From NCBI GenBank assembly GCA_010015585.1, contig ML975149.1: 64,000 nt of DNA. One strand, given 5' to 3'. How positions within the stretch are numbered: position 1 is the first letter of the stretch; each line of letters opens with the position of its first letter. Under the pieces are notes generated by a model. That model saw only the letters and a list, made by a program, of their open reading frames with translations, was not told the origin of the DNA and ran no database searches. The position numbers were made by a program, and so were the translations under genes. This document shows, one piece after another, positions 22,961 through 45,527 of the stretch. The stretch comes from Eremomyces bilateralis CBS 781.70 (taxonomy: Eukaryota).

Positions 22961-24694
22961 TTTCCCTCGTAGAAATGATGTTCGAATAGAAGTGGGATGT
23001 GCAATTCTAATGAAGTCTCTTGTGGCGTCAAATATCTATCTCCTGGCGAACTCATTGTTAGCTCTACTGCTGGAAGATTTGTTGTTTCCAAGGGACTTAC
23101 TCTACTCTCCTTCAAGAAAAAACATGCAGTGATCTCAAATGCTCATTGTACGATAATCGTCACTCAAGGGTCAAGATATCATGGAAAGAAAGGTGCCGAA
23201 AGATTGTACACAATTCCACATGCTTTGTATGTACAGCTAGCAGAAAAAGAAAATGGAAACGTACACGCGCCATCTCCTGCCATGACCACCATCTTGCTCC
23301 ATCGTTGCGTTCACATTGACTTTTCTCGTGCCGGTCCAATCACCAGCAGCCACAAATCATCCATGCGGACGTATATCACGGTGCATCGAATAAGGGGACA
23401 TCACGTTGCTCCTATGGGGTGACGCAAGGGCCTTTGGGCGCGAACGGTTCAGAAAATCAGCAAATGGACCGGAAGCTAAAAGGTAGAACAATGTATGGTT
23501 CGACTCCAGGAGGCTCCAAGGCCCGAGGAGAGGAAGAATGAAAGTAGCGGTGGAGGGCAGAGTGGAGAGACGTGGATTGATAGTTGGCGCAGGGATCGCT
23601 ATGTGTGATGAGCTGGTTCATGTCGGGTGGAAGGGAATTGGATATTGATGCATGAACAGTCGCAGGTTCGCAGTGGTGAAGGGGCACGCATGAAAAGCGT
23701 GATCTTAGACTGTGAGTTTGAATACTTTCGATGCTAGATGGTTCTCCAGTTCCGGTTCTCGACAGCTTGAAGTTCAAGCACCCTGTTCCTGAGCTGCTCA
23801 AGTTCTGCTACTGTGTACTAATACCCAGAACCAGAAGCGCCCGGATTAGCATTATTGTCCCGATACGGAAATTTGAACCGTGATTAGCAAGAAGCTATGT
23901 GATATCCCCTACCCCCTAGGTGGCTAGGCCATCTCGTTGTCATGGAGTGTAGAGGTATCTGACTCGTTCGAATTGAACTGTGAATTGAAAATTTAAATGT
24001 GTAGAAATTCGAATGGAGATGAGGTGTTGCAGATCCACGAGTCATGTGCTGGACAAGCGTGGATGGACCTGACAACCAAGACGTCGTACAAGAATCTCCA
24101 GGAGTCATTCTGCGACATCCATCTATCCTCAATTCTTCTTCGGCATATATTCCGTGCTCATTTTGTACTTATAATGTGCCTTAAGTACCAAATACCAAGT
24201 ACCAAGTATAGTCCTGCATTTCAATCCTGAAATGGAGACTATCAAACCTAGACCAGATTTGGTCTCCGTACAAGTGCGAATCTTATGACTCATATATATG
24301 GAACCTGCTGCGATCTGTAGGGCGCGAGCGTGAATCCGAACAGTTGGGTTCAGCAATCGACCAACACATGTTCAATCACTTCATCCATGACGCAAAACGC
24401 TTAGAAATCCAATCTCACCAAAACAAGCACAATGGAATGGTTGGATCTGTTAAGATGATTGAGATGGTATTGTGGAAGGGCGTACCACGATTTCCGCCGG
24501 TGATTTCTCCGTTAAATATTTATACGCTTCATATCTCCGGGGGGTAGCCTCTGAATACTCTTTGTCTCTTCATATTCCGTACTCATATTTCATTCTCAAC
24601 CCGAGCGTTTCTAATCATTGCTCTAGTCACATTTTTCATGTCAAATCCCTATTATCACGTCTGGCACGGTACTACTCCAGTTCAATAGAGCACC

Positions 24695-25918
24695 ATGGCA
24701 CCTGACATTCAGCCGTTCAAAATCCACGTCTCCGAGTCTGCCATCGAGTCGCTGAACGACAAACTCGATGCATCCCAATTTCCCGAGGAGACCACCTTCT
24801 CCGATGACTGGAAATACGGCACTCCCTTATCCGATATCAAGCACCTGGCCCAACACTGGCGCGAGAAGTTCAACTGGCGGCAACAGGAAGCCAAGCTGAA
24901 TGAATACCCGCAATACACTACGAGTGTCAACGTTGATGGCTTCGGCGAAGTCGAGCTTCATTTCCTCCATCAGCAGACCCGGAATGGGAACAGCATCCCT
25001 TTACTTTTTTGCCATGGCTGGCCGGGTTCCTTTCTCGAAGTTCTTCGCATCCTCCCCCTCTTGACCTCTACTGCCCCAGGAGCACCCTCCTTCCACATCG
25101 TCGCGCCGTCCCTCCCTAACTTCGGCTTTAGCTCGCTCATCCAAAAACCCGGCTTCTCGATCCCCCAATACGCCGAAGCCCTGCATTCCCTCATGCAAAA
25201 GCTCGGTTATTCGCACTACGCCGCGCAGGGGGGCGACTGGGGCTTCATTATCGTCCGCATGCTCGCCCAATTATATCCCTCCTCTCTGCTATTCCATCAC
25301 CTCAACTTCGTGCGTGCAAATCCGCCCTCACCTACAGCACATCCGTTGCTCTACCTTCAACACGCCCTGACACCGTACACCGCTGCCGAGAAAAATGGAA
25401 TCGAGCGCACCAAATGGTTCTGTGGCCCCGGTTTTGCGTACAACGACCTCCAGGCGCATAGCCCGCATACTATTGGGATAGCATTAAGAGATTCGCCACT
25501 CGCATTGCTAGCCTGGTTGCATGAACGGCTGGTGCAGTGGACGGACAATTATAAATGGGATCTAGACGAGGAGCTGACATGGGTGTCGTTATATTGGTTC
25601 TCAGTCGCAGGCCCCGGTGCAAGTGCGAGAATCTATCACGAGAGTCGATTCGCGGAGTTGGAGAAGCATGACAAGTGCTTCGAATATAATGCAGGCGTGT
25701 TGCTGGGATTAAGTTATTTTCCTAGGGATCTCGTCGTTCCACCTACCATTTGGGGCAGAACTTTAGGAAAGGTGGTCTTTGAGAGAAGGCATGCTGATGG
25801 TGGGCATTTCGCCGCGTGGGAACGTCCGAACCTGGTTGCAGGAGATTTGCAGGATATGGCAAAGAGGGACCCGGTGAGGAGGATAGTAGAACAGCGGTTA
25901 GCAATCAAGCTGGCGTGA
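24695..25918 (+). CDS. microsomal-type epoxide hydrolase (alpha/beta hydrolase with EHN N-terminus)
   Basis: IQPFKIHVS and FNWRQQEAKLN (EHN), HGWPGSF oxyanion motif, QGGDWG nucleophile, GGHFAAWE catalytic His. Intronless, 407 aa. Confidence 0.93.
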   Translation: MAPDIQPFKIHVSESAIESLNDKLDASQFPEETTFSDDWKYGTPLSDIKHLAQHWREKFNWRQQEAKLNEYPQYTTSVNVDGFGEVELHFLHQQTRNGNSIPLLFCHGWPGSFLEVLRILPLLTSTAPGAPSFHIVAPSLPNFGFSSLIQKPGFSIPQYAEALHSLMQKLGYSHYAAQGGDWGFIIVRMLAQLYPSSLLFHHLNFVRANPPSPTAHPLLYLQHALTPYTAAEKNGIERTKWFCGPGFAYNDLQAHSPHTIGIALRDSPLALLAWLHERLVQWTDNYKWDLDEELTWVSLYWFSVAGPGASARIYHESRFAELEKHDKCFEYNAGVLLGLSYFPRDLVVPPTIWGRTLGKVVFERRHADGGHFAAWERPNLVAGDLQDMAKRDPVRRIVEQRLAIKLA

Positions 25919-26298
25919 ACAATGCTAAGAAGGTCAGATCGTCGTGTTTGGGCAGCATTCTGATGCGCAAGGGCAATCGGTAGGTAATCAATAATATTGC
26001 ATGTCATTTTCTATGCTAACCTTTCCTCACTCCATCTTAGAATATTGTTTTGGCCGTCATTGAAGCTACGAACCCAGTCTTCAGTTCTAGCTCACCTGTA
26101 TCACCAGTGAGAATACAAGATCGGATCAGGCTTTCAGCAAAAGTGACATCAACATTGCGGCGAAAAAGAAAGCCAACCAAGGTCGAAAACGTAGTCATTT
26201 AACCTACGTCGAACATAGTCTACCGAGAAAAGTATAGGGTATCCTCCATCTTGCAACAGAACTCGATACTCAATGAAACCCGTAGTTATTTGCTTTTC

Positions 26299-27316
26299 TT
26301 ATAGTCTGGAGTAGACAGTTGAGCGCGAAGGGCCGTCCGTGAAGTCTGTACTCGATGCGAATGACTCCCATCCCTTCAATTCTTCGAGTGTGTCTGTACA
26401 TTTTCTTTTTATTACCGTCAAAGCGTCGCTTCCTAATGGGATTCGTAAGGGGAACGTAGCAGGACTCGCGTACATCAAAGCCACCACATCAAACACCTTT
26501 TGCGCAGCGAGAACTGGATTTCCCGGCTGCTTTCCGTCACTGTTTCGGTGCCTGCATCGTAGTTCTTCCTGAACATTAGCGTAGTCCGGGATCGCCGTCA
26601 AATTTATGGTCTTATTCTTGTTCGAGGGACTCAGAATGCCCGTACGGAACATTCCAAGCACAAGGACGTGGACGCGTATGCCTAAGTGTGTGATCTCTCG
26701 CGAAAGGCTTTCGGCAGCACCTGCCGATAATCATGTCAGTGTATGCTACACACAATGAGTACAGAAGCTACCTTCGACAGCGAATTTTGACGCGCTGTAT
26801 GGTCCACCTGCTGCAACTCCGTGCCACCCAGCTATGCTTCCCATGAAAAGTATGACGCCCGAGCGTCTTGCCCGCATGTATGGAAGCACGCACCGCACCA
26901 TTTTCAGGGAACCATAAAAGTTGGTGTCGAATTGTCTACGTATATCGTTGTCGCTAACGAAGGTCAGTGAAATAACACTGTCGTCCTTGATAGGATCAAT
27001 ACCTGACTTCCTCCCAGACGCCCGAGAACACAAAACCGGCATTGTTGACCAAGACATCGATATGTCCTAAATGTCCGACTGCTCCGCGGATTTTAATGTA
27101 GAGTTCGCGCTCCGGCATGGTCACGTCCAGCTCGATCGGATGAACATTGTCGGCTGCGCCGTCAAGGGAATACATGTATTCTAGGTCCGAAAGCTTTCGT
27201 GCCGTTGGAATGACTTTATCTCCTCGACCAAGTATGGCAGTGACAAGCTCACGTCCGAGTCCCGACGAGCAGCCTGTGACGAGCCATACCTTGGATGTCG
27301 AGGGCGTCTGAACCAT
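26299..27316 (-). CDS. classical short-chain dehydrogenase/reductase, 3 exons
   Basis: VWLVTGCSSGLG, LVNNAG and YSASKFA motifs; C-terminal QPGNP...LRIPLGSDA. Confidence 0.92.
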
Positions 27317-28110
27317 ACTAACTAGTTTACTCGGGTTTAAAAAAGAGTAGAAGAGACTGTGGCCTGAATCAATGTTGACAAAAGAGTATCGGCACCAGTC
27401 AGACCTTTCTCCCCAATCGATGGATGATGTGACTTGTAGGGGGCATGGACCTATAGATCATAGGGTAAAGTCAAATAAAGTCAAATTTTGCAAATTTTCG
27501 AAGCACATGAAGCGAAGATCGTATGTAACCTTGTATACAAATGCTCATAAATCATGGTGTAGCTTATCGGGGGTTAGTTAGTCGCGTTGCAGGGAAGACG
27601 GCGCACTCTAGGTTTCTTCATCGGTTCAAGAGCTTCTCTTGGTATATCAAGAAGAGATATTTGGTGTACGCACCGCGGCATGAGGTGTCAGTGGTCATCC
27701 TGTGTCAAAGTTGTTTGTCGACCAGAACTTCATGTTGTCTGTGGACGTTGGAGGTTGATTGTGGAGCCTTGAGTCCGGGCTTATCCATATGGTCTGGCAT
27801 GACTCATTCAAATCAGGGACTGCTGTGCTACCAGTCAGGGATCATTCAGGGGTCACTCAGGGGCGGCAGACCACGGCATAGTACATGACAAACAATGGAG
27901 CACTCTGCAAATATTTGCCCGACAACATATCACCGATGTTCTATTAAATCTATGTAACTAGATGACAGTTCCCATTGACTGCAGATGGTAGCGGGCGCCT
28001 CCAGAAGAGCAGTCCTAGAGGCTAGAAGTCAGCATTACGAGCCAGTCACTTGTCCTGATCTCAAAATTGCCAATAATAATAATGATATTATCATCTACGC
28101 CGATGTTTTC

Positions 28111-29263
28111 CTAACCCTTGCTAAGAAATTCATCGCTGAAGTTGTAGTCGATATATCCATGCGGGTGCTTGGGCGTGTAGAATGTGTCTCTGTTGTACTC
28201 ATTCAACTCGATTCCGGACCGGATCCTGAAAGGCAGATCTGGTGTCGAGATGAAGAATCGTCCGAACATGACAACAATATTCCTGTTCTTCTCCTCTTTG
28301 TCCACAAGACGACGAGCCGAATCCGGCCGGAAGCCACCAGCAACAAGAAGTGGTCCATTCCATATGTCATATGCAAAGTGGAGCTTGTCCGATGCCTCTA
28401 CATCGGCGTTGCCAGAAATTCTCGACTCAACAAGGTGCAGGTAGGCAAGACCGAGTTTGTCCAATTTTTGTATAATGTCTGAAAATTGCGGCACTGGCTC
28501 GTCCATCCTCATGCTGTTGAAGCTACTCCAAGGACTGAGGCGAATGGCCGTGCGATCAGCACCGATCGCATCAATCACAGCTTGAACAGCCTGTACGCCA
28601 AACCGCGAGCGATTCTCGATACTACCGCCGTATTCATCCGCTCGCTGATTGCACTTGTCCTGGAGGAATTGATCGATCAAATAGCCGTTAGCACCATGTA
28701 GTTCAACGCCATCGAAGCCGGCCTCGATTGCGTTTCGGGCTGCCTGCGCGTAATCTTCGATGGTAGATTTGATCTGCTCGATAGTCAAAGAAGTTGGGAC
28801 TGCATGCGCTGAGCTAACAGGGATGTCGCTTGAACTCGTGATGGTAATGTTCTCGGTTTTGGCGACGTCAGGGTTGGCGGTGCGCCCAAGCGCCCACAAC
28901 TGACAGAAAATATGGCTTCCTTTGGCGTGCACGACTTTCGTTATTTTGCGCCATGCTTCGATTTGTGCGTCGTTATAGATCCCAGGAACATTGGCGTATC
29001 CGCCTTGCTGCGGTGAGATGAATGTAGCTTGAGTCGTCTTAGTTATTGTGCGCTTACAGTTACAATAGGATGATTGGGAACTCACCCTCTGAGACTAAGA
29101 GCGTTCCTGGCACCGAGGCGCGTTGCTCGTAATATGTGGCCATTAAGTCTAGAGGTACATGCTCATCCGAAGCTCGATATCGGGTCAGAGGAGACATGCC
29201 CATTCTATGCCGCAACTCCACCCTCCCAACGGTAAGCGGCTCGAAAAGTCGTGAGTTGGCCAT
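28111..29263 (-). CDS. NADH:flavin oxidoreductase / old yellow enzyme (ene-reductase), 2 exons
   Basis: MSPLTRYRA, QLWALGR, GFDGVELHGANGYLIDQF, RADEYGGSIENRSRF, GRFFISTPDL and YNRDTFY...GYIDY. Confidence 0.95.
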
Positions 29264-29439
29264 GATCGCTTTCGTGTATGGAAAAATGTCTGCTTCATCT
29301 TGGAAATCACAGAAGATATATACACATTAGCAATTTCACCCATCTCAGGTTCCACACGAGCATTTTTTGGTTTCCGAATTTGTCAGCTCAATATTGCCGC
29401 CATGATTAATAATGCGGAATATCACGTCCACTCTGAGAC

Positions 29440-29982
29440 GCTTGGACTTCAGGGGCGAAAACACCGAAACATCTAGGGGCTGCAGGAGGTGAGACGTATG
29501 AGCCGGCAGAAACAAAAGAAATACTTGGTTTTCCTTGGCCAACTTCATGAACTCTACTGTAGCGTGAGAACCGTGTCCATCGCACACTAGAAGCCGCCAT
29601 TCGTCCGCGGGGAAGTCTAGGGGAGTCCTGGCGGCGACGTCTTCTTCTATAATCCATTCGACGAGCCATTTCTCCTGATCTGGAGACAATTTTTGAAACC
29701 TTTTGGCTCCATCCTGGTGGGATATTGAGCCATTCAGTCGGGAGCGAAGCGTTGATCTCTTGATGCCGTATTCATCCGCACCTTGGTTTAAGGAATCGAA
29801 TTTTTCATCATGAAACGCCTGTATAGCGAGCTGTATAGCGACTTCATTCACACGAGGCATTTTCAGTATAGCATCTCATTTTGTTGAATTAATTGATGAA
29901 GTAGAGGATAGATCTATAGAAATCTACCTATCTTGGTTGGGTGCACGAAAATAGGGGTGCACGAAAACGGGGGTCGCTGACT
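29440..29982 (-). mobile_element. Fot1/pogo (Tc1-mariner) transposon remnant with one TIR and an internally deleted transposase
   Basis: ORF 29860 has HTH motifs (YGIKRSTLRSRLNG, KLSPDQEKWLVEWI) fused directly to RLLVCDGHGSH...LPAHTSHLLQPLDVSVFSPLK. A Fot1-like TIR AGTCAGCGACCCCCG... starts at 29982 next to TA and contains two GGGTGCACGAAAA repeats. Confidence 0.9.
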
Positions 29983-30612
29983 TAGGCCTGATACGGTTAT
30001 CGAGTAGCTATCGGGGCTTCCTGATACCGATTATCTAATAATACACGATAGTTTACGCATGTATCGTTATTTTAAACCCGGCTGGAGAGAATCCCCCCCC
30101 GTTTTTGGGATTTTCCCCCCTCAGAGGTATCAAAACCATCATATTTCAACTTCAACTCCAAGCAGCTCAACGCTAGCTTCGAAATAATATAATTTTTAAA
30201 AACTAAGAAGAATACTAAAGCCTGGATAACCGATCCTGCTATTTTAGAGCTCCAAATCCCCGTTGCGTTGTGGTTGAATTGTGTGTTGAACTTGATGAGT
30301 TGTATGAAAAAACTACCACGACGACTTCAATTCCAAATCACGCAACCCCGCAGCTTATTAGAATCAAATTTCGGGGTCCAAGAGCAAGAGGGAATTCTAA
30401 AGAACTCTCTCTGAGTTTTGAATTTGAAAATAATGGTGAAAATGTGGCTACATTGCCTTGTAAATTTCAAAACTGGTGATTTTGGTACTTCTGAGGGGGG
30501 AAAATCTCAAAAACAGGGGGGAAAATCTCACCAGCCAATAAACCCCAGCCCTCACAATCGTCGTGATATTTAATACCGATTATCGTATCAGATTACCCGA
30601 TAAAAATTATCG
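29983..30612. mobile_element. degenerate palindromic MITE-like element (starts TAGGCCTG, TATCG/CGATA-rich arms), split by a nested insertion
   Basis: Arms ~29999-30050 and ~30557-30612 align as inverted repeats (ATCGA..TATCGGG..CTGATAC.GAT.ATC..CACGA). Confidence 0.5.
30080..30536. mobile_element. Mutator-like MITE (~457 bp) with ~58-bp TIRs and a 9-bp TSD
   Basis: GGCTGGAGAGAATCCCCCCCCGTTTTTGGGATTTTCCCCCCTCAGAGGTATCAAAA at 30080 is the near reverse complement of 30475-30536. The flanks are TTTAAACCC and AATAAACCC (7/9 identical). Confidence 0.8.
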
Positions 30613-30872
30613 ATGAAGCTCTGCACGTCAGAGGCAACTCCGAGCATCGGCCGATTTTGAGCTGGCTCTGAACATGAGTAATGCAATGCGCTAAAAAGAT
30701 CGGCGTATGGAGAATCTGGGGTTCCTTCTCCCAAAGTGAGTTACGGATAGCAGACGGATATTCGGCGCAGCACGATGCTTGCCGTGCGAATGATTGCCAG
30801 TGGTATAACTTGATAGTTGATACGCTCATTCGCAACAGCGTTTGAGCTCTTGAGAATGAACGAACTTTCGCG

Positions 30873-32831: not shown

Positions 32832-32951
32832 GTGCAATATGCTCCGCAGGTCATCGTTCGTTATATGTGTATGAAATTATAAAGCTGAATGAACACATCA
32901 AGAGTTCTTGCAAGTTCGGCACTGTAAAGATTATCAAGGCCAACCAGAATT

Positions 32952-33374
32952 TAGGGCTGGACACGAATATTCGACTGCGAAAAATTTAGAATTTCCGCTT
33001 ACTAATATTCGTAATTATTCGTCTATCTCTGAAGCTATTTCCATGTATCTCGCATCGGAAAGATGGTCGACAGAGAGCTTTGAGCTGGGGTCACTTGGCT
33101 TGCTGAATCGTCAGGAGTGATCAATTCGACGCTATTGATATGCTTTGTATCTCTTAGAGCTCAAATCCTCCAGATCGTGTTCGGGTAAACAAAAGTCGCG
33201 ACTGCTGGGCATTCATTCATTGGCTCGGCTTTTGCCGAATAAGTCTTGGCATTATTTACGAATATTCGCGAATAATACGAATAAAACGTCTCAAAACTTA
33301 GTCGAATACGAATAATCGTTCAAGAGGAAAAGTCGAATACGAATAGCCAAAATCCTTATTCGTGTCTAGCCCTA
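32952..33374. mobile_element. hAT-like MITE (423 bp)
   Basis: 18-bp TIRs TAGGGCTGGACACGAATA / TATTCGTGTCTAGCCCTA (17/18 match), many subterminal CGAATA/TATTCG repeats, and AACCAGA on both flanks (degenerate TSD). Confidence 0.85.
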
Positions 33375-33597
33375 AACCAGATGGTCATCTTTCATGTCCA
33401 AGTCTGGAGGGCCGCACTCAATTTCAGAAGGTTTTTGAATTTCTCCACAGTAGCCAGGGAAATATGTATGATCCACGGTCCATACGAAGTAATTGTTGTA
33501 CACATACGCGTTAGTCGAAGTTTTCGCTTAATAATAATAGGGGCAGAGAGCAGCTGCAAAAATAAAGAAAAGTTCAAGGAGTTACGTACCCCTGACA

Positions 33598-34017
33598 TTA
33601 GTCATGTCACTCATGACTAAGTCTGCTCATCAGTTCCTTACCTCCGGACAATCTGGGCGAGGTACACAAGAGGTCAACCGCGTTGGGGAATGACTCATGT
33701 AATCTCTAGTATTTTCATCCATCCAATGTCCATCTCCGGGATGGCACGTGTAAAAAGATCTGACTTGCAATAATGGCGCACGTCAGTCCACAACAAAAAT
33801 TGAAGAGGGTCAGGCTAGGCTAACGCGCATGAAACCATACTCAATTAACTCTAAGGTCCATAAGCTATGGACTAACTTACCCACAGCGTCACGTCATTAA
33901 GTGAGCTATTCCCTGCATTTACGCACGATTTTATTGCGAATTTCAGCCCCTTCCCACATCAAGCCCAGAAATATATTCAGCCAGGGAGAGAGTGCCCAAT
34001 TCGAATCATGAGTCATG
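33598..34017. promoter_or_regulatory. cluster of AP-1/Yap-type bZIP sites upstream of the MFS gene
   Basis: Palindrome TTAGTCATG-N5-CATGACTAA (33598-33620), ATGACTCATG (33690) and CATGAGTCATG (34007). Confidence 0.6.
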
Positions 34018-34503
34018 TATGATAACAGTGCGGGGAAAGATATACCGGGAAACGGGGAAAGCTATGCGGGGAAGGATATGGGGGGAAAGGTGTACCGAAC
34101 GGTTGGAATCAGGGGTTTGTTCGACGACGTGGAGCCTTCCCCAGGTTTTGATCTTCACTTTCTTGACTCTTTCCGTGGCAATTGCCGGCAGCAAAGCTCA
34201 TTCTCCTCTCGGAACACGGCTGGGCATCTACCATGCAGGCAAGCTACCTCTAAACGATGGGGAGGCTCACAGTAAGCGTGTGTGCCGTGGGTATTCGGCT
34301 GAAGCGCCATATGCTGTCGCCACAACAGCAAACCTCCCTTATAATGGACAAGCGGACCATCCGCATGTGTGGAGATCGGCACAGGACGGATGCTGTATCT
34401 TGGAATGGGAGACTAATTCAAACGTCTGATTTTCATATTCACCGTTTTCCTCCTTCTCCAGCGCGTCACATATTCTCCTCTTGTTTACATGTCCTTCTGA
34501 GCA

Positions 34504-36432
34504 ATGCCAGAGAAAGTCATTGATAACGTCAAGCGGGTGGAGGATGTCTCTGAGAAGCCCACGATCGTGAAGGATTTCTCCGATAAGCCCGCGATCATAG
34601 AGGATGCCTCTGAAAACTCGCTCTCTCTAGACAAGACCGAAGTGGAGGAGGGCGATGTCGTTGTCAACCTTTCGGAAGCAGAACAGAAGGCGGCTATCCG
34701 CAAGGTTGATTGGCGAGTAGTGCCGTTACTCACTTTTCTTTACCTTGTTTCGTTCATTGACCGGTCCAATAGTAAGTTCCCAACCTAAACCTTTACTGTA
34801 CAGCACTGATTGCTGTTGTGTAGTTGGCAATGCAAAGATTGCCGGCATGAATGATGACCTCAATCTTCATGGTCTGCAGTACAATGCTGCCGTCACTTTA
34901 TTCTACGTGCCGTACACACTCCTAGAAGTCCCTTCCAACATAGTACTCAAGCTTATGCGGCCCTCGCTGTGGATATCGATCCTGTTGTTCACTTGGGGCC
35001 TGGTAATGACGTAGGTTTCAATTGCCATGTCGCAACTCAACATGGATCTGACTTGAATAACAGTCTCATGGGGTTGGTAGAGTCATACCAGGGCTTGCTA
35101 GCTGCTCGGTGGTTTTTGGGTGTCGCTGAAGTTCGTTGTTACCCAGACTCACTCGCACGGAAACTGACCGGCATTCTAGGCGGGATTCTTCCCAGCGGCG
35201 ACTTATCTTCTGACTATCTGGTATAAGCGATACGAATATCAAAAGCGATTCGCGATATTCTTTTCCATGGCTTCTATGGCCGGAGCCTTCTCAGGTTTAC
35301 TTGCATTCGCTATTGAGAAGATGGACGGAGTTGGCGGCCGGAAAGGATGGCAATGGATCTTCATCCTCGAAGGCTTGGTTCCTATCGCCACGTCTCTGGT
35401 CCTCTGGAAGATTCTTCCTGATTCCCCTGAGACAGCGACATTCTTAAACAAGCACGAGAAGAGATTCGTGATCGAAAGATTAGCTACCGATACCGGATCA
35501 GGAGAGGGTCGAGTTACCAACAATGAACGGATCAAGAAACACCACATTTACAGCGCGTTCAAGGAGTGGCGAGTCTGGGCTATGATCTTAGTATACTGGG
35601 GCAATAGTGTTGGTGTATATGGGTGAGATTCTTCTTGATAATTTCGTCGATGTGTACCGTGCTTATCATTTCCAGCTTCTCTGCAACGGTACCGACAGTG
35701 ATTAACGAGTTGGGCTACACACAAGCTCAAGCGCAACTCCTTACTGTTCCAATCTACTTCTTTGCTGTTATCCTGGTCCTTGTTTTCGCTTTCCTATCCG
35801 ACCATTATCAGGTTAGGTGGATCTTTATTATCATACCTTATACTATTGCATCCTGCAGCTTCATTGCTCAGCTTGCTATCCCACACCCTAGATACCCTGG
35901 TGTAGCTCTCGGATTCCTGTTCGGAATCGCAGGCGGTTTATATTCTGGGTTCCCGCCAACGGTCGCTTGGGTTGCCAACAACTTAGCCCCTTCGTCAAAG
36001 CGAGCTGTTGCAATGGTACGTTATTCCGAAATTTCCATAAGAAAGCAGAAAACACAGAGTGTCACCTTTTGGTGTTCTTCCATGATACCAGCCTTCTCAG
36101 CTGTTAGTAGGCCCTCTGCTGTCAACAAAACTAACCGCTACGACCAGGCGCTGCTCATTTCTGTGGGCAATATGGGTGCAATCGCTGGTTCGAATGTCTA
36201 TCTTGCACGTGAAGCTCCCGTGTACCACCTCGGGTTCGGAGCTTGCTTGGCTTTTCTGTGTGTTTCAATTATCATGACCGTTGTCTTGCGCTTGTCATAT
36301 GGGCGGGAGAATGCTCGAAGAGACAGATTGGTGGAGGAGCTCGGCGGTGAGGTGGGTGTGAAGAGTCGCTACTCTGAACAGGAATTGCTCGATATGGGAG
36401 ACCGCAGTCCATTCTTCAGGTACGCTCTTTGA
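34504..36432 (+). CDS. MFS transporter, allantoate permease/DAL5 (anion:cation symporter) family
   Basis: RKVDWRVVPLL...SFIDRSN, EVPSN, GWQWIFILEG, LPDSPETA.FL and LLDMGDRSPFFRY; multi-exon. Confidence 0.93.
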
Positions 36433-37043
36433 TCAGTTCGATGATCAGTTGCACGCGGTTGGAGGATGAAGCTTTTATGACGACGATTCAGAGGGTAGAG
36501 AATGAGCTTGTAGTAAATTAAGGGTTCAGCGTGTAGGCCGCTGCTCGTTCAGCCCCTATATAACATATACATTTTCATCATTTGATGCGCATCATGTGCA
36601 TCATGTGCAAGAGCGTCCATACTTGCCAACCATCGGAGCAAAAGTAGCCTTCTCGTGCGGTCGGGGTCGGAAGGGGATCCTGCTGGGGCCGGGACACTTG
36701 TTTGCTCTGTTATTTATTCCACCCGTTACCATAATTGTGCCTTCTCGTGATTCATTAGCGTGTAAAATCGTCATGGGCATCGATTGACCAGCACTGGATG
36801 ATACGAGCACAATGAAAGGACTGAATTATGAGCAATTCTTGCAGTATGTACAAGAATTGCACAAGAAGTGTACCATGCACGCATGGCAGCGAATGGCTAT
36901 GAGCACGTCCACTGCCCAGTCCATTAAGATCTCCAGTAGAACATTGGGAGACATGCTGTCATCAATTGTCTGGTTACCGATGTCACCCAGTGCAGTCTAA
37001 ACAGATGCGATGACTGGCGCGAACTACACAAAAGCGGTCGCGC

Positions 37044-38801
37044 TCATGTACCATAAATTGCTGATGCCATTGCAGGAAACCCCTCCAGAAATGTAGGTGA
37101 GACCGTCCAGTTTTTAAGATTTCGAAGGTGCTTCTCGAAGATGGAGTGTATTCGCTCATCACCATTGGCGTCTTCCACTGCGTCAAGGCTATCGAAGCCC
37201 CAGTTCACAGTGACATGCTCGGTGTAATATTTACCGACAACTTCGTAAGGGTACCGTTCAGGCTCTTCGATTAGCATATCTCGTACTCCAGGCCTTGACA
37301 TCGTCAGCGCCTTTTACAATTGCGTGTCATTTTCATACCATGGAATGTTGGTGATCCAAATAGCATGCGGTACCGTCATCTGTATCGCGGTAGGCCGTAG
37401 CCAGGGCGGCATGTAGAGGTAATCCTTTTTATCGCGCGATATCAGCCACTGAAATTGTGAGTATGTATTGCATGATTCGCACAGTATGAAGTAGGACAAG
37501 CACCATACCCTCATCGTCTGACTCATCACCCAGAAGAAGGTCATCTTCTCCGCCATTTTCGTTGTCAAATACTTCGACAAGATTTCCCCTATGAGCCCAG
37601 CAAGAGCATGAGTGGGATCCCCCGTTTTCGGATTGAGCAGCTTTCGAAGAGTTGGCCTTTGCGGACCAATTACGTCTTGAACAGGCTCACCATTCGCTAT
37701 CATTGCTCTACGAGAGTTCATAAAGTTCAGTAGTATGTCGTCCAAGGGACATACGGGGGACGTAAATGGAGGGGTGACGGTGAAAATGGTAGGACTGGGT
37801 GAGGATTCAGGTCTCCGCTCGGGAATATCGGGTCGATTGATGGTTACTGTGCTGCTGGGGGTCGGAAGTGATACCGGAGGATCGTTTTGAGGCACCTCGC
37901 TCATGGTCCCGTCGAATTCACCACCCAGTGAGAGATGCGAGTCACTTGATCGCACAAGAGAGAGAAGATGGCCAACTGGCGTCGTAGATGTGTGCCCATC
38001 ACTGGCGCTCTGTGATGCATTTGGCGATGGATGGAAGGCCCAACTTCCTCGGCCTACCAGAGTCTCATGAGGACCGGCACTATGTGGATCTGCAACCGGG
38101 GCTCGCTCGCACGCGTTGACGTGCATAGACATAGAATTTGTCCGAGGCTGGATTTCCTGGTGACTTCTCTCATCGTGCATAATGCCCGCTGACAGATGAA
38201 AAGCAGCACCGCCGGCAACAACTGAGTCGGTGACGGTCATACGGCTAGTGTCCTCATCAGGATGCGAAGTTGCCATCTGTAGACCCTGGACTCCAGATGA
38301 AGGAGCAACAATACCATTCTGCTCCAGCCGATCGCGTATAGATTCGATTTCATGCCTGAATTCGGACCCGTAACCATCATTTTGGCTACCTGCGACGTAC
38401 ATTAGTATTGCTAAGAAGATCACCCGATTTGAGAGCGTACCTTCAGAGCGGCTTGTCAAGGCATCTTCGGAGGTCGTCACGCCAAGTGCCGTGGAGGTAG
38501 TATCAAGGATATTCCCGAGGGATTGAGACATAATTCGAACCCGCTCGCGCAGCATGGTTATCTGCTGCTGTAGCTCATTTTCCCTCTGACTGGAAGCCTC
38601 TTGTAGACGAGCGTTCTCTTGCTCCAGGCTGATGATACTGTCTTTCATTCGCTGGCGAAAAGCGTGCTGAGCTTTCCTGTCCACCTGACGTTTGTGTTGA
38701 ACTTGTTCTTCGGTCAGGTTGGCTATCGTTCTCGATCTCTTGTTTGGGTTGGCCAGACGCTCCATGGCTGCTGCATCGCTCGCATCCCGATTTGCAGCCA
38801 T
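37044..38801 (-). CDS. bZIP transcription factor with C-terminal DUF3425 domain
   Basis: Basic region QHKRQVDRKAQHAFRQRMKD followed by a leucine zipper. C-terminal CPLDDIL, MPPWLRPTAIQMTVPHAIWITNIPW(P)GVRD, VTVNW and FEKHLRNLKNWTVSPTF. Confidence 0.88.
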
Positions 38802-39992
38802 TATCGCACCACGGTCTCAAGCAAGAGCCACCGCCGACGTCTACAGCCTGGCGACTGTCATGTATAACTACCGTCCACAGAAGAAGCCATTAGCATCCGG
38901 ATTGTGAGGTTGAGTGCAGCTTTCCGTTGGATGGTCCGTGATTCTGAAATTGCGGGGACGGGGTACCCCACAGCGTGGCCCTGCCGAACGGCTAAGGAAA
39001 CGGGGACCATTCCAACACATCAGGACCAAAGGGCACGAACTGGTCTATGTATAATGAAAGTGGAAAATCATATCCAGCGACAGCGTTGTACCGAATATAC
39101 CCTCTGCGGAGAGCTTCGGGCCTCAATTCAAACTTCGGCCAACACCCACTGGATTTAAGCGGAGACAAGGACTTTGAGATGAGGTCAAAATCGGGGGTTT
39201 CCTCCGCACCGAACTCTCTGGAAGGAGTTTCTCTTCACACTTCAGTCACACTAGACACGCAATTGTGTAGACAGCCACAGCTCCGCATAGAAGAAGTGGA
39301 CAAAAAGGGTTGTTAAGCAAGAAGACGACTGACGATGTAGCCACCATCGGTGGCGAATGATTCAGCAGGCGGGTCCTTAAAGAACGGAAGAGCATGAAGA
39401 TTGATAGACAAGCCCGATCGCAAGGCATTGCTGAATGCCGATACTAGGTATTGGGTCCAACAGAGAGTGCTTGCCGAACGCGGATAACATCTCGGCTCTT
39501 CCAACCCAGTATGCTCGCTACTCAAACGACCTCCATATTACCCCGCACGGCATCATCTACAAGATGCAGATCCTGAGAATAATGTACTATGTATGTAGAG
39601 CATCGAAGATCCGCAGTTCGCATTCCGGCCACCAACTATCCTTCGGGATTTAGAACATTGGCGTTGGGCTGGACTAGCGCGAATGAGGGCCAGCTGGTCC
39701 TTGCCGGCTTGCCCACGCATGAGTAATGTCAATGGCTGGGGCTCGGCGTTTCTGCATGTGATCACTTGCCCTGCGAGGACTGGGGAATCGTCATATCGCT
39801 CCATAGAAAATCCAAAGGAGTGCAGCTACTAGCAACTAGCAAGGAATGGAGAAAGTAAAAGTGTGAGCGACATACTATGTTATTGTTACTATGCTAACAC
39901 GAAGTTATGGTACGTACTCCATGTGAAGATGCGCCAGCAAATACATACCTAGATGCACCAAAAGCCATGTCAGGTCCTTAGGTGCTTTGCAT

Positions 39993-41949
39993 TTAGTTCC
40001 GCAGTTGTACGCAGGCTTCTTGCAACAACAACCCAAGGTCCCGCTCCTTAGCCAGAAACCCCAAGCCTACGGCATAACACACGATGGCAGATTTCGATTG
40101 CAATAACCCAACAATTGATCTCCAGGCGCGTCTCAACCGCCAAAAGCTGTCTCCTCCTTTGAGTTTGAAGTCACTCCACTTGGGGAAGAGAGTCCGTCGC
40201 CAGAATGTAGCCGCGTAACCAGGCCACGAAGCGGAGTTCCTACCGGCTTTGTTGATGTACCAGTTGGAGCATCCAGCCGAGAAGACTGTATCATGAAGCT
40301 CGAGATCAATGCCTTCAACGAAGTAGTCTTCAGCGGCCTTCTCAACCTCCACAGTCCTCGCTCTTCTGTCCAGTAAGGGTTCGAATAGTGTCTTTGCAAG
40401 GTAATCAACTTGAACTTCCGAAGCAAAAATGACTGAATTGTGGGCCGGGAAGGTGTTTGGCCCAAACCTAAAATCGGATCAGCTTTCTTCTAACATATGG
40501 CCATCAATAGGCTCACATCAATGCGAAGTTGGGGAAGTTGTGGATGTGCATGCCCATGTAGGCTTGCGCACCAACGTGTGCATCCCATTGCTTATGCAAA
40601 TCGATACCACTTCTCCCAACAACTTTCAATGGCCCGAGGAAGCTCGAGACTTCGAAGCCTGTGGCGAGGACAATCACATCGAAGTCGTCATGCACACCAG
40701 ACTCGCTAACAACACCAGTTGCGTCAAACTTCTGTATACCTTCAGCACGAAGAGTCATGTTGTGTGTGTGCAAGGCCTCGAGATAGCCGGGATCGAAAAT
40801 TCGCCTCTTGCAGCCTGTACGACTGTTAGCCAATTGTGCCCAGGATGGACCTGCGTAGTGTTCTAAGTACCTAGTGGAAATTTCGGGATGAGAATATCGT
40901 GGTACTTCTTTGGTGCCGTTGCCAAAATGTACTCCCTCGCAGCGCGCTCCGTGGCCTCACGCTGCTTTTGAGAGGCTTCGGAAGCTCCGTACGTTGTCAT
41001 CAAGGCATCACTTGAGCTGAAAATCTGGTACCGATGATACCTCTGCCAGAGGGGGACATAGGTAAAACAGAACTTCTCGATGGCTGAGAACTCGCGATTC
41101 GGTCGTTCATGATACCACTGTTGGCCTCGCGCATATCTGCGTCAAAATTAGACGGATCATCTATATTCATAGGTCATGGACTTACTGAGTAACGTGCTTC
41201 ACGTCTTTGACGACGCTAGGCACTACCTGGGCGGCCGAGCAGCCGTTACCGATAACGGCCATTCGCTTGCCCCTATAATCATACTTCGTGTTCCATCGTG
41301 CGGTATGAAAAATGGTCCCTTGGAATTCATCTTGGCCTGGAAATTTCGTCTTTCTGGGTTCTGATATACTACCAATAGCCGAGATGAAGATAGTCGCCTT
41401 CTTCGTGTACTTCCGCTTTGTTCTCTCGTCCAGAAGATGAACTTCCCATTTGTTTTCCTTCTCATTCCAAGTCGCACCTTCGCATGATGTATTGAAAACC
41501 ATATGGGGCCGCAAGCGAAACTTGTCTACCGTTGATTCCATATCTACGCCCATGGAATCAATCGTGTGAACGATAGGCACAGGCTGGGTCACTTACATTC
41601 AAGAATCTCCTCACGGTCGCAAAGCTCTTTCGACCACCGAGGATTCAAATTGAAACTGAAGGAGTACAAATGGGTGGGAATATCACAACCACTGCGCACA
41701 AGATAAGCCTCAACTGGCGCCTTTGCAGTCAGACAATTGAATACGCACCATCCTGGATAAACATTGGTCCTCCATGTGCCGCCAGGTCCATCCAATTTCT
41801 CATACATCTGGACGCCCATTAGCAGAACTTCTTGCATGAAAGGCTTCACTAACCGTGAAGTTGTCGAATCCCAGCTTCTGCTTCAACTTGTGCGCCATAG
41901 CAATCCCCGACGGCCCGCCGCCGATGATAATCGCGTCAATAGAAGTCAT
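39993..41949 (-). CDS. type I Baeyer-Villiger-type flavin monooxygenase, multi-exon
   Basis: MTSIDAIIIGGGPSG (ATG 41949), GGTWRTNVYPG.GCDIP, BVMO fingerprint FQGTIFHTARW, VIGNGCSAAQ, GCKR, VLATGF and CSNWY. Confidence 0.92.
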
Positions 41950-42528
41950 CTTGAGCTGTTGCAGCACAATCGGTCACTCTCAGACGAATGAAGGATGCTC
42001 ACAGTAAAAGTTTTGGAGTATGGGGTAAACCACGGAGTATACTTGGAAATATAACAACGCATTAGTAGCTCACTAGAGTGGCCACTCTAGACACCATGTT
42101 ATTCGACTGCCATTGCCCATTCCACATCGAGAATACGTCGCCTTGCACAGGGACCAGTCGTCAACGGCTGTACATACTGGGATCCGCAAACATGAGTAAT
42201 GTCTAATGTCTATCATGATTTCGCGCTTGCATACCCATGACTCGTGTGCCCCGGATCTTTGGTTAATACTACCTGGATGGTGCCGATGGCCACTTGCCGA
42301 CTTGCCGTGCATTCCTGTACGGCAGCGGTCTATAACCCGTCCATGGTCTGTTAGACTGTAGACACAGTGGATCAAAATTGCTCTTCAGATGGCAGCGTCA
42401 TGCCACGCCAGGTAGGATATAGAGATGGAGATTGGAGTTAGGATCGTAGAGGTGGAGATTGAAGTTTATTTCTTGAGCCTACTATCCGCTTCATCGTCCA
42501 AATTTACAGGAAAGGGGAAAAATAAAAA

Positions 42529-43722
42529 ATGGCCACAGCGGGGTTGACGCCAGAAGCCGCACCAAGACTCAATTTGCCGAAAGGGGTCGTCTCCTGCACA
42601 ATCGCCGCTATCAATACAACATGCGACTTGACGGTTCCTATCGATACGCTGTGCGAACCATCGATAGACGACCATAACCTACTAAATTTGCCAACGATCG
42701 CTTTTCTGATCACGCATCAGCCCTCTGGGCGGCAGGTGCTCTTCGATCTAGGATGTCGAAAGGATTTCTGGAATCTGCCTCTTCCAATCGCAGAAACTAT
42801 CAAGGCAAAGGTGCCTGGTATCAGAGTTGACAAAAATCTGATCGACGTCTTGGTCGAAGGTGGTAGCGATATCGCAAACATTGAAGCAGCGATACTCAGC
42901 CATCATCACTACGATCATATTGGCCATCCGAGTACATTCCCGAAATCCTTAGATCTTATAGTTGGTCCTGGGTTCTCCGAAGAATTCTTGCCTGGCTACC
43001 CAACAATTACAACATCCCCCTTCTTCGAGAACGATTTCGATCGGAACGTGCGCGAGCTCGACTTCTCGGGCGGACTCATCATCGTCGGCTTCCGCGCCAT
43101 CGACTATTTCGAAGATGGGAGTCTGTATCTCCTGGATTCTCCGGGCCATGCAGTTGGACATATTTCAGCCCTAGTGAGAACCACCGATTCAATAGCAGCT
43201 ATTGACACCTTCGTGTTTCTGGGGGGAGATATCTGCCATTTCGGCGGCTCTTTCAGAGCCACAAGATACCTGCCAATGCCATATATGCTTAGTCCATACG
43301 ATGTGGGACAGAGCCCTGACAAATCGCCGACTCTGTGTTGCACACAGTTCACTGCCTGCCATCCACAGCAGGAAAATGCGAGAACATCGCCATACTACAA
43401 AGTTTGTAGCGGGTCCGACTCGTGGTATGAAAACCCGCCACTTGCACAGCAGAGCATCGAGAAGTTGAAGGTGATTGATGCCGACGATCGGGTTCTCGTC
43501 TTGATCGCTCACGATTTGGCCATGCTGGACGTCATCTCTTTCTTTCCCAAAGGCACGATTAACGATTGGCACAACTTGGGATGGAAACAGAAGCTACGTT
43601 GGCGATTCTTGAATGAGCTTCCCGTGGAAGGAAATGAGCGGAAAGAAGTTCTTGTCAACGGAACATACGTGGATGGGAAGCGTGTGAAGGACTTAGATGG
43701 CAAGTGTATGCAGCATCAATGA
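42529..43722 (+). CDS. metallo-beta-lactamase-fold hydrolase (AHL-lactonase/lactamase-like)
   Basis: LFDLG.RKD, zinc motif SHHHYDHIG, DYFEDGSLYLLDSPGHAVGH, GGDICH and IAHD. Intronless. Confidence 0.9.
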   Translation: MATAGLTPEAAPRLNLPKGVVSCTIAAINTTCDLTVPIDTLCEPSIDDHNLLNLPTIAFLITHQPSGRQVLFDLGCRKDFWNLPLPIAETIKAKVPGIRVDKNLIDVLVEGGSDIANIEAAILSHHHYDHIGHPSTFPKSLDLIVGPGFSEEFLPGYPTITTSPFFENDFDRNVRELDFSGGLIIVGFRAIDYFEDGSLYLLDSPGHAVGHISALVRTTDSIAAIDTFVFLGGDICHFGGSFRATRYLPMPYMLSPYDVGQSPDKSPTLCCTQFTACHPQQENARTSPYYKVCSGSDSWYENPPLAQQSIEKLKVIDADDRVLVLIAHDLAMLDVISFFPKGTINDWHNLGWKQKLRWRFLNELPVEGNERKEVLVNGTYVDGKRVKDLDGKCMQHQ

Positions 43723-44320
43723 GGGGAGTGGACACTCCGTTTGTTTTGCAATGAGTGACTTAGACATATGATAGGGGAGCTTCAATACACCATTTTTGGT
43801 CAAGTTGCGATTTGCCCAGCTGCAAAGCGGTCACGCGACATCTTCGTGTTGAGCCGAGCGATCTTCGCTTATAGAGTGATATGACTGTACAGGAGGGACG
43901 GAAGAAGCTACCTAACAAGTGTTGACCATTGCTGAGATTCGGTGAAGTCTAGGCAAGGACGACTTTAGGAATGAAATAAGAGTTCAATCGGATGTCACTT
44001 GAATCGGGTGGGATTTCCAAAATCCAATTCCGTGCTTTGTAAGGAACATCAACAATCAAGAAATCGGGGTGCACCAATAATTGTGGCCGGATCTAATATA
44101 TCGAGATATGTAAGCGTTGCTAAGCAAGGTTGGACTAGTTTCCTGTCTCCCAGAGTGCTGATCCCTGGATTGATGTCAGTCGACATCTTCATGACCACAC
44201 AATGAGTAATATCAACCGGTCAGGGTCCTGACTAACAAGACTGGCTTGGAGTATTTAAATCAGAGGGGAAGAATTGTATAAAACACAGAGGTGATCTGTA
44301 CGAACGTTGAAATCGCTGGA

Positions 44321-45527
44321 ATGTCAAGTCTGCTTCGCCGATTGCCACAACTAAGAAACCAGTTAACACCTCGATCTCCACCCACCATAATCCTGTCCGC
44401 AAAGATGTCGACACACGATCCAGCCAAGAAGAACATCCTCAACTGGGTCGACCCCAAAGACAAGAGCGGGGAATTCAGGCGCCAACAGTCCCAATTCCGC
44501 GACGTCATCTCCTCCGATCCCAACGCCGCCTTCCCCGCCGAAAAGGACCGGTATCATCTCTATGTCTCGTATGCCTGCCCCTGGGCCCACCGGACCCTCA
44601 TCGTCCGGAAGCTCAAGGGCCTGGAGGAGCTGATCCCGTTCACGGCGGTGCACTGGCACATGGGCGAGCGAGGCTGGCGGTTCGTGACGCCGGACGAGAC
44701 GGTGCCGGGGGAGAACGCGGTGCCAGATCCGCTGCACCCGGAGTACACGCATCTGCGGGACATTTACTTCGAGAATGATAAGGAGTACGGTGGACGGTTC
44801 ACCGTGCCGACCTTGTATGACAAGAAACAGAAGCGGATCGTGAACAACGAGAGCAGCGAGATCATTCGCATGTTCTACCATGCCTTCGACGCGTTGCTGC
44901 CGGAGAAGCACAGGAATCTCGATCTGTTCCCGAAAGCGTTGCAGCAAAAGATTGAGGAGACGAATGATTGGACGTACAACGATATCAACAATGGTGTCTA
45001 CAAGTCCGGGTTTGCGACGTAAGTAACACCTCCGCCAAAACGATTCAGGACACTAATTGTTTGACCAGTTCACAAGAAGCCTACGAGAAGGCGTGCACAC
45101 AGCTGTTCAAGTCTTTGGACCGTGTTGAGGCACATCTCTCCTCATCTCCCGGACCCTACTATTTCGGCACCGAGATCACGGAGGCAGATGTCCGGCTGTA
45201 CACGACAATCGTCCGCTTTGACCCCGTGTACGTCCAGCACTTCAAGTGCAATATCCGCGACATCCGATCGGGATATCCTGCCATTCACGCGTGGCTCCGG
45301 AAGCTGTATTGGGACGTCCCGGCGTTCCGCGAGACGACCCAGTTCGAACACATCAAATATCACTACACGAAGAGCCATAAGCAGATCAATCAATTCGTAT
45401 GTTGGCGCGTTCTAACTGTATGTGGCGCGAAGGCTGACATGACGTGCAGAGCATCACCCCTATAGGACCCCTTCCAGACATTCTTCCGAAGGATCAAGAA
45501 GTGGCGGCAGGAAAGGCATCAAAATGA
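44321..45527 (+). CDS. omega-like glutathione transferase / glutathionyl-hydroquinone reductase (ECM4/YqjG family), 3 exons
   Basis: [63 protein letters not shown] and [10 protein letters not shown]. Introns 45019-45068 and 45397-45449. Confidence 0.95.

Follow-up and report, generated by a model that had tools for sequence, protein, structure and literature searches.

A recurrent CATGA(C/G)T(C/A)ATG element in the promoter spacers of a putative detoxification gene cluster that carries its own Pap1-like DUF3425 regulator gene

A nine-gene cluster and its shared promoter word

We analysed a 64-kb stretch of contig ML975149.1 of Eremomyces bilateralis CBS 781.70 (hereafter the window). The DNA is fungal, has short spliceosomal introns and a G+C content of about 50%. 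Nine genes, delimited using Pfam and start codons, are packed between 24.7 and 45.0 kb. They encode an epoxide hydrolase (EH), a short-chain dehydrogenase (SDR), an old-yellow-enzyme reductase (OYE), an AtuA-family protein, a major facilitator superfamily (MFS) transporter, a putative regulator with a Pap1-like basic region, a coiled coil and a DUF3425 domain, a Baeyer-Villiger/flavin monooxygenase (BVMO), a metallo-beta-lactamase-fold hydrolase (MBL) and a glutathione S-transferase (GST) (Table 1). The spacers in front of these genes share a short word, CATGA(C/G)T(C/A)ATG, and it is this element and its possible reader that we consider here. No polyketide synthase, non-ribosomal peptide synthetase or terpene cyclase gene was seen in the cluster, and for that reason it looks like a xenobiotic breakdown or detoxification cluster rather than a biosynthetic one.

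Searching the whole window for ATGA[CG]T[CA]AT returned nine places (13 strand hits), all of which are intergenic and lie between 24285 and 44210. At least one exact site was found in each of the seven spacers that bear a gene 5' end, whereas the two convergent 3'-3' spacers (25916-26298 and 36430-37043) contained none. Exact sites were likewise missing from coding DNA (0/9) and from the remaining ~43 kb of the window, where none of about ten other promoters carries the 9-mer. This placement, confined to promoter spacers, is the most telling feature of the element; it confirms the statement of an initial annotation of this DNA that the word precedes essentially every cluster gene, as well as its impression by eye that housekeeping promoters lack it.

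All motif coordinates of that annotation were correct when rechecked in the sequence: ATGACTCAT occurs at 24285, 27799 and 33690, ATGAGTAAT at 44202, and the arrangement TTAGTCATG-N5-CATGACTAA at 33598-33620. Its count of eight exact 9-mers has to be raised to nine, since ATTAGTCAT at 33597 also fits ATGASTMAT, and two words that it listed as different variants, CACGAGTCATG at 24036 and CATGACTCGTG at 42236, are one 11-mer on opposite strands. A further proposed variant, CATGATTAAT (29401..29410, 142 bp upstream of the OYE ATG), was not counted because its centre has no C/G and because its position is immediately 3' of a transposase-remnant open reading frame (ORF). The set used below thus comprises 12 sites, nine exact matches to ATGASTMAT and three near sites (CATGACTCGTG at 24036 and 42236, and CATGACTAAGT at 33612). 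Two pairs of sites stand close together, 33596/33612 with a spacing of 16 bp and 42191/42236 with one of 45 bp. Since the surroundings of the sites are unrelated beyond ~13 nt, the element is no dispersed repeat.

The motif was chosen post hoc, and its recurrence might be a functionless product of chance or composition. Dinucleotide shuffling of the window (100 replicates) gave 2.4 strand hits on average and 10 at most, so that no replicate reached the 13 observed, and for the cluster's 8,390 bp of intergenic DNA a composition-aware expectation was at most 0.26 sites, compared with nine seen (Poisson ~1e-11). As a correction for the post-hoc choice, all 9-mer patterns in which two positions are 2-fold degenerate were counted in the same 8,390 bp. 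ATGA[CG]T[AC]AT was the top pattern of this unbiased scan with 13 hits, while in second-order Markov simulations (60 runs) the leading pattern scored 6 in 29 runs, 7 in another 29 and 8 in two. Fifteen real control chunks of 8.39 kb, four from the rest of the window and eleven from metagenome loci, gave best patterns of 6-14; the score of 14 proved to come from an 8-bp tandem array at 50053-50186, and the chunks scoring 12 and 11 had.CTG.CAGC and.GCTGC.GC as their best patterns. Two simpler measures were not discriminating and leave some room for chance: an exact 9-mer seen four times arises in 28/120 simulations, and the 1-mismatch neighbourhood count (14) lies inside the simulated range of 11-19. 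In place of the whole genome, background DNA was taken from metagenome loci (166.9 kb) and from the remainder of the window; those 166.9 kb of unrelated fungal contigs held two sites, and the two 9-mers found in 5.3 kb of one locus (L016) were not significant across 25 loci. Together with the distribution over 7/7 promoter spacers against 0/2 convergent ones, the empty remainder of the window and the conserved extra flanks outside the 9-mer definition (C at -5, A at -4), the outcome of the unbiased scan makes a chance origin highly improbable. We consider the cis-element almost certainly real and very probably functional as a cis-regulator.

The 12 sites define an 11-bp pseudo-palindrome, CATGA(C/G)T(C/A)ATG. 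Among their 24 half-sites, position -5 is C in 17, A in 4 and T in 3, position -4 is A in 23, position -3 is T in 22, position -2 is G in 18 and T in 6, and position -1 is A in all 24. Every site has one strict CATGA half, the partner half being CATGA, CATTA or CACGA; two TGA halves occur in 4/12 sites, one TTA half in 6/12 and two TTA halves in none, and the orientation of the non-palindromic sites towards the genes is variable. In ten of the 12, a 7-bp (pseudo)palindrome is built from TTA/TGA with a central C/G, as in the overlapping Yap response element (YRE-O), while the two CATGACTCGTG sites have one CGA half. The 5' adenine (or cytosine) flank of the YRE-O is also present, with A at -4 in 23/24 half-sites; its preference for a perfect TTA(C/G)TAA is not. 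The CATGACTCG core is exact in 2/12 sites and CATGACTC in 4/12. On these sequence features the element belongs to the Yap/AP-1 class of overlapping half-sites, and a protein with a basic leucine zipper (bZIP) is in all likelihood what reads it.

Table 1. Cluster genes, copies of the element and ends of X3 contigs (X3, a sequencing run described in the next section), in window coordinates
Feature	Position	Strand	Remarks
EH (EHN + alpha/beta hydrolase)	24696..25918	+	Pfam
SDR	26299..27316	-	introns 26719-26769, 26954-27002; ATG 27316
OYE (Oxidored_FMN)	28111..29263	-	intron 29028-29085; ATG 29263
AtuA-family gene	30873..~32831	+	3' end approximate; Pfam, start codon
MFS transporter	34504..36432	+	five introns; Pfam, X3 contigs
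Regulator (Pap1-like basic region + coiled coil + DUF3425)	37044..38801	-	introns 37293-37337, 37449-37508, 38387-38437; Pfam, PDB match, X3 contigs
BVMO	39993..41949	-	Pfam, X3 contigs
MBL	42529..43722	+	Pfam, X3 contig
GST	44321..45022	+	first in-frame ATG 44321, second 44405
Near site CATGACTCGTG	24036..24046	-	655 bp upstream of EH ATG
Site TATGACTCATA	24284..24294		407 bp upstream of EH ATG (24696); inside X3 contig record 1
Site CATGACTCATT	27798..27808		487 bp upstream of SDR ATG (27316, -); ~97 bp outside the inferred SDR contig end
Site CATGAGTAATG, OYE/AtuA divergent spacer	30673..30683	+	195 bp from AtuA ATG, 1415 bp from OYE ATG
Paired CATTAGTCATG + CATGACTAAGT, 27-bp inverted arrangement	33596..33622		~890-900 bp upstream of MFS ATG (34504); 250-276 bp outside the MFS contig 5' end
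Site AATGACTCATG	33689..33699		810 bp upstream of MFS ATG
Perfect palindrome CATGAGTCATG	34007..34017		492 bp upstream of MFS ATG, in transcribed leader
Site CATGAGTAATG	39718..39728	+	922 bp upstream of regulator (bZIP) ATG 38801
Site CATGAGTAATG, BVMO/MBL divergent spacer	42191..42201	+	247 bp from BVMO ATG, 333 bp from MBL ATG; 119 bp outside the MBL contig 5' end
Near site CATGACTCGTG = published BIP1 consensus CATGACTCG	42236..42246	+	45 bp from 42191 site
Site AATGAGTAATA	44201..44211	+	115 bp upstream of first in-frame GST ATG (44321)
SDR contig, record 2	~27703 (inferred from record length)		site 27798 ~95 bp further out
MFS contig, record 3	5' end 33872		sites 33596-33699 lie 173-276 bp further out; 34007 inside leader
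Regulator contig	reaches 39578		site 39718 140 bp further out
MBL contig, record 4	5' end 42320		sites 42191 and 42236 lie 75-129 bp further out

The genes on either side are unrelated to the cluster: amylase, alpha-glucan synthase and coiled-coil protein genes on the left, and FNIP-like, glyoxalase-like, Kei1, Nop53 and other genes on the right. The spacer between the FNIP-like and glyoxalase-like genes holds the tandem array mentioned above (GTGAAGAG, an 8-bp (16-bp) unit in 16.8 copies), and ~70 bp upstream of the glyoxalase-like ORF, at 51854, stands a TGAGTCA without A/T flanks, the only TGASTCA (AP-1) core outside the cluster (1/6 in the window). Two mobile-element traces interrupt the cluster. 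A transposase remnant (DDE_1 + HTH_psq, 176-aa open frame, 29348-29875, minus strand) lies directly upstream of the OYE ATG, between OYE and its nearest good site (30673), which is 1.4 kb away; OYE still has a spliced X3 contig. Between AtuA and MFS, at 32950-33376, lies an element resembling a miniature inverted-repeat transposable element (MITE), with 20-nt terminal inverted repeats TTTAGGGCTGGACACGAATA that are 95% complementary. A second apparent motif, CGAATA / GAATATTCG, was rejected as a dispersed site, as it consists of internal repeats of this MITE-like element.

Transcripts across the cluster

Contigs of X3, a run labelled 'RNA?' that another study produced from the same organism, were mapped on the 20-kb stretch of eight genes, GST lying outside it. 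Alignments of these contigs skip short stretches with GT..AG ends on plus-strand genes and CT..AC ends on minus-strand genes (15 joints listed, 18 further), and because the joints have intron-type ends we conclude that X3 contains spliced RNA. Spliced joints on the correct strand were obtained for SDR, OYE, MFS, the regulator and BVMO, unspliced contigs for EH and MBL, and there was depth in all 30 bins, AtuA included. Given these spliced or covering contigs, the eight mapped genes are real and are expressed together in at least one condition. Nothing from another run, X5, aligned to the stretch.

The positions of the contig ends relative to the sites are given in Table 1; outside the ends for SDR (inferred), MFS, the regulator and MBL, sites follow at distances of 75-276 bp, in favour of the element. 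The site at 39718 falls in the gap between the end of the regulator contig at 39578 and that of the BVMO contig at ~39723 (side 152 of the joint at 39874). The EH contig extends from ~23265, so that both EH sites (24036 and 24284) are in transcribed DNA. It begins ~1.4 kb upstream of the EH ATG (23265-24695), in a region that has no ORF with a Pfam match; this could reflect an overlapping divergent transcript, a long leader, an unannotated transcript or overlap from the left neighbour.

Some further features of the transcripts concern individual genes. Upstream of the regulator ATG, the contig covers 777 nt (38802-39578, minus strand) with 14 upstream ATGs and upstream ORFs of 4-60 codons, which could impose translational control as in other bZIP genes or could belong to a separate upstream transcript. 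Introns in the 3' untranslated regions of EH (25979-26039) and BVMO (39875-39948) are spliced. The convergent pairs EH/SDR and MFS/regulator were each assembled as a single contig, and their 3' ends therefore overlap. The MITE-like element is covered by high-depth X3 contigs with insertions and loose ends, from which we infer that it is multi-copy and transcribed somewhere. At 30496-30537, contigs of X3 and of a DNA run, X4, both break with loose ends on either side, which suggests a short repeated or conserved segment; a tRNA was looked for there and not found.

The in-cluster regulator and its relatives

Exon 1 of the regulator gene encodes KRQVDRKAQHAFRQRMKD, after which comes a heptad-rich helix. 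Among PDB entries, residues 32-91 were matched best by the Pap1 bZIP-DNA complex 1gd2 (E 0.0029), in which DRKAQHAFRQR of the regulator aligns with NRAAQRAFRKR of Pap1 and A-Q-x-x-F-R is kept. DUF3425 (PF11905) was recognised in the portion whose coding sequence precedes an intron, with a score of 33.1 bits (cut-off 27.1), and in relatives with 67-118 bits. Only three database relatives were retrieved, from Verruconis gallopava (48% over 37% of the query), Aaosphaeria arxii (31%) and Pyricularia (28%), and in one source the homologues are named 'BZIP domain-containing'. A structural model of the V. gallopava homologue (P0002) has a continuous 77-residue helix (20-96) at a pLDDT of ~90, as expected of a basic helix that runs into a coiled coil, then a disordered linker and a folded C-terminal DUF3425 domain at a pLDDT of 80-90. 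With Foldseek against the PDB, the DUF3425 domain gave no significant match (best E 0.8), and the VIA-align matches of the whole model were dominated by the long helix (Z ~7, non-specific). In one ESM Atlas cluster DUF3425 is joined to Zn2Cys6 domains (86% of members), a lead which suggests that DUF3425 is a regulatory module independent of the DNA-binding head.

A search for orthologous clusters among the database relatives of the regulator, EH and MBL and in 25 metagenome loci gave none. The nearest relatives of EH (60% identical) and of MBL belong to other taxa, at 60-66% identity for the two proteins together, and the best 120 rows per search include one entry for A. arxii in the EH list (53%) and none for V. 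gallopava in either the EH or the MBL list. The DNA run X4, which shares its species label with run X1 and is coded as organism B, aligned only over coding DNA of SDR, MFS and BVMO at 80-90% identity, and as the alignment is confined to coding DNA it gives no promoter comparison. One 9.7-kb contig of X4 carries BVMO and MFS pieces ~650 nt apart, too close for the regulator gene to fit between them, and a short SDR-like piece ~4 kb away, and so represents a related but differently built module.

The 25 metagenome loci encode distant bZIP-DUF3425 relatives in unrelated neighbourhoods (Nic96/FGGY or Gig2/GH1/2OG oxygenase). One orthogroup, with the basic region ANLTP[DE]QLAKKRANDREAQRAIRERTK[NK]QIE, sits between Nic96 and FGGY kinase genes, and all seven of its independent loci (L015, L018, L019, L020, L021, L022=L023 and L025) have a CATGACTC[AG] block 243-423 bp upstream of the matched coding start, reversed (TGACTCATG) in L019. 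The block is conserved amid poorly alignable DNA, with a second CATGAC block ~25 nt later; such a word occurs within 800 bp in 1/17 of the other loci, several of which have little upstream DNA. These upstream blocks would fit autoregulation across the family. Since the promoter words of the window's cluster and the 7/7 orthogroup blocks both fit, DUF3425-bearing, Asn-to-Asp Pap1-like proteins, a large and almost unstudied fungal family, may recognise CATGA(C/G)T palindromes and autoregulate, although we regard this broader proposition as doubtful.

Candidate readers and comparison with known systems

Taken together, our results make this a credible co-regulated cluster whose nine genes are probably switched on together. 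We propose that CATGA(C/G)T(C/A)ATG would serve as a shared upstream activating element through which one bZIP-type dimer controls EH, SDR, OYE, AtuA, MFS, the bZIP-DUF3425 gene, BVMO, the MBL-fold hydrolase and GST. The reader would be a homodimer of the in-cluster Pap1/Yap-like bZIP-DUF3425 protein, with one monomer on the strict CATGA half-site and the other on the relaxed CATGA/CATTA/CACGA half, the two overlapping at the central C/G. The site upstream of the regulator's own transcript would then confer positive autoregulation, and the regulatory role within the protein would fall to the C-terminal DUF3425 domain. Within the 64-kb window the arrangement is that of a cluster-specific regulon of the AflR/XanC type, with the regulator inside and the site only in cluster promoters. 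We give the whole chain of element, dimer and in-cluster reader a probability of about 0.47; the in-cluster protein, acting as an autoregulating dimer, is the single most likely reader, at odds close to even.

A number of observations weigh against this proposal. The evidence consists of sequence comparison and transcript presence, all depth comes from one run, and co-expression in X3 falls short of co-regulation. Of the regulon put forward in the initial annotation, what stands is a Yap/AP-1-class word in all promoter spacers, including the one upstream of the regulator, and the co-occurrence of spliced transcripts in one run. Contig ends mark the minimum reach of transcription and not transcript starts, and the sites at 24284 and 34007 sit within transcribed DNA. 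As for the protein, Asp replaces the invariant base-contacting Asn in the regulator, in its three database homologues and in the 25 metagenome loci, and because of this substitution its DNA specificity cannot be read off from Pap1. The bZIP pattern N-x2-A-[AQ]-x2-[SCF]-R thus breaks at the Asn while A, Q, F/I and R are kept, and the Pfam bZIP_1 profile scored 12.1 bits (E 0.23, residues 1-120) where the cut-off is 27.6. By sequence, then, the regulator resembles a Yap/Pap1-type bZIP and fails two marks of bZIP membership, the Pfam profile and the Asn. (Most of the metagenome members have an Asn one residue before the Asp, KRANDREAQRAIR.) The orthogroup's upstream blocks would fit control by another, BIP1-like bZIP equally well. 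OYE has no good site within 1.4 kb. OYE, GST, MFS and SDR are gene classes controlled by Yap1 and Cap1. Redox enzymes and drug transporters are reported to be under Yap1/Cap1 control (PMC3111461), BIP1, a protein without DUF3425, is reported to bind CATGACTCG, the core of the window's variant 11-mer (PMC10833574), and the sites described for a DUF3425 bZIP (ACGGCTGAC, PMC13113314) and for XanC (AGTCAGCA, PMC8406171) both differ from our element.

BIP1 (MGG_08118) of Magnaporthe oryzae, a bZIP of 266 aa without any domain recognised by Pfam, is the strongest rival, and its site is the closest published word. In this alternative a BIP1 orthologue, from a small bZIP clade conserved across Pezizomycotina, would read the element and the in-cluster gene would be a target or co-factor. 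As described in PMC10833574, BIP1 binds TGACTC in vitro, the oligonucleotides bound in electrophoretic mobility shift assays (EMSA) align to the consensus CATGACTCG, and genes of the ACE1 cluster are under its control by way of two such sites, which lie in a bidirectional promoter and are needed for expression. The window resembles this system in the extended half-site CATGAC-TC and in the pairing of sites in the bidirectional promoter of a gene cluster: CATGACTCGTG occurs twice (24036 and 42236), CATGACTC in 4/12 sites, and the C at -5, which lies outside the Yap consensus, in 17/24 half-sites, and the CATGACTC[AG] block recurs upstream of distant bZIP-DUF3425 genes. However, the sites of the window are mostly full palindromes or CATGA/CATTA hybrids made of two half-sites (CATGA...TCATG or ...TAATG), unlike the one-sided CATGACTCG, and TAAT replaces TC[AG] in 5/12. 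BIP1 is moreover encoded outside its cluster, lacks DUF3425 and is appressorium-specific in Magnaporthe, an odd fit for detoxification genes (PMC10833574). We consider a BIP1 orthologue an unlikely reader on balance.

On the same footing we place the view that the cluster belongs to the global Yap1/NapA (AP-1) regulon for electrophile and oxidant stress and that the sites are ordinary Yap response elements. All 12 sites fit the Yap1/Cap1 consensus MTKASTMA with its 5' adenine (PMC3111461); TGACTCA, TTACTCA and TTAGTCA are experimentally characterised Yap1 sites, with redox and drug-transporter targets (PMC3111461), and PcYap1 of a Penicillium is reported to bind TTAGTAA and TTACTAA (PMC8977021). 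The window shares with the Yap1/Cap1/Pap1 YRE-O the 7-bp pseudo-palindrome of overlapping TGA/TTA half-sites, the central C/G and the 5' adenine, its in-cluster protein keeps the A-Q-x-x-F-R of Pap1, and redox enzymes and drug transporters are among the targets. Yet Yap1 clearly prefers TTA(C/G)TAA (PMC3111461), whereas no window site has two TTA halves, the TGA form makes up 18/24 half-sites and there is the extra C at -5. TTASTAA words near the cluster are found only at 32999, inside the MITE-like element, and at 31884, in AtuA coding DNA, and the one AP-1 core outside the cluster spacers (51854) lacks the A/T flanks. A global factor would also leave unexplained why about ten other promoters of the window lack the 9-mer. 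The candidate reader itself departs from Yap1, Cap1 and Pap1 in having Asp for Asn, a DUF3425 domain, a gene inside the target cluster and a failing bZIP_1 score.

ATGA(C/G)TCAT is the optimal Gcn4/CpcA element, and four of the 12 sites match it exactly, as would cross-pathway control elements read by CpcA/Gcn4 in amino-acid starvation; the BIP1 motif has itself been described as GCN4-like (PMC10833574). The other eight sites deviate in ways that weaken Gcn4 binding, with a TTA half-site in 5/9 exact sites and two near sites ending in TCG, and nothing in the gene content relates to amino-acid control, Pfam showing no amino-acid biosynthesis genes in the cluster. Control by CpcA therefore seems very unlikely. 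The initial annotation had named Yap1/NapA and CpcA as candidate readers and had left out BIP1, the closest published match. With BIP1 included, the candidates for reading an AP-1-like word in a fungal promoter number at least four (Yap1/NapA, CpcA, BIP1-clade proteins and DUF3425 proteins).

Returning to the in-cluster bZIP-DUF3425 protein as reader, its gene neighbours suggest what might induce it: the content of EH, OYE, BVMO, hydrolase, GST and AtuA points to a terpenoid, a lactone or an electrophile. The terpenoid idea draws on a table in a review (PMC8120277), and a literature search for a fungal combination of AtuA, Baeyer-Villiger and epoxide hydrolase genes gave nothing specific. If confirmed, the 11-mer could be used to trace the regulon genome-wide, to seek the inducer and to drive the cluster on purpose.

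The nearest comparison by protein architecture is A7370 of Curvularia lunata, a DUF3425 bZIP reported to bind ACGGCTGAC with a Kd of 10.6 uM (PMC13113314). The two systems have in common the bZIP-like plus DUF3425 architecture, and A7370 binds a cluster-regulator promoter and is linked to oxidative stress; they differ in that the A7370 site is a non-palindromic 9-mer sharing only TGAC, its gene lies outside the cluster and it acts through another regulator. TeSrdA, also a DUF3425 protein, is reported without a defined site (PMC12765306). Nearest in cluster organisation is XanC, the in-cluster bZIP of the Aspergillus fumigatus xan cluster, which acts through AGTCAGCA (PMC8406171). Here, too, an in-cluster bZIP-type activator goes with one short word common to the cluster promoters and found by motif search. 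The word is a different one, however, the XanC promoter is presented there as lacking the motif whereas the upstream region of our regulator has one, and xan is biosynthetic, not catabolic. Because the A7370 site and that of the in-cluster XanC are in print, the initial annotation's statement that it knew of no defined binding site for such a protein is out of date.

Our literature search on DUF3425 bZIPs yielded one EMSA-defined site, which is different, so that the window offers a testable pair of regulator and site. If the proposal is true, it would be the cleanest such pair for the DNA code of the DUF3425 family and a test of DUF3425 as a signal-sensing part. Fungal clusters that encode their own regulator and share a promoter word form a known kind, as exemplified by AflR and XanC, and to these the window adds a catabolic or detoxification example in which the arrangement is unusually clean.

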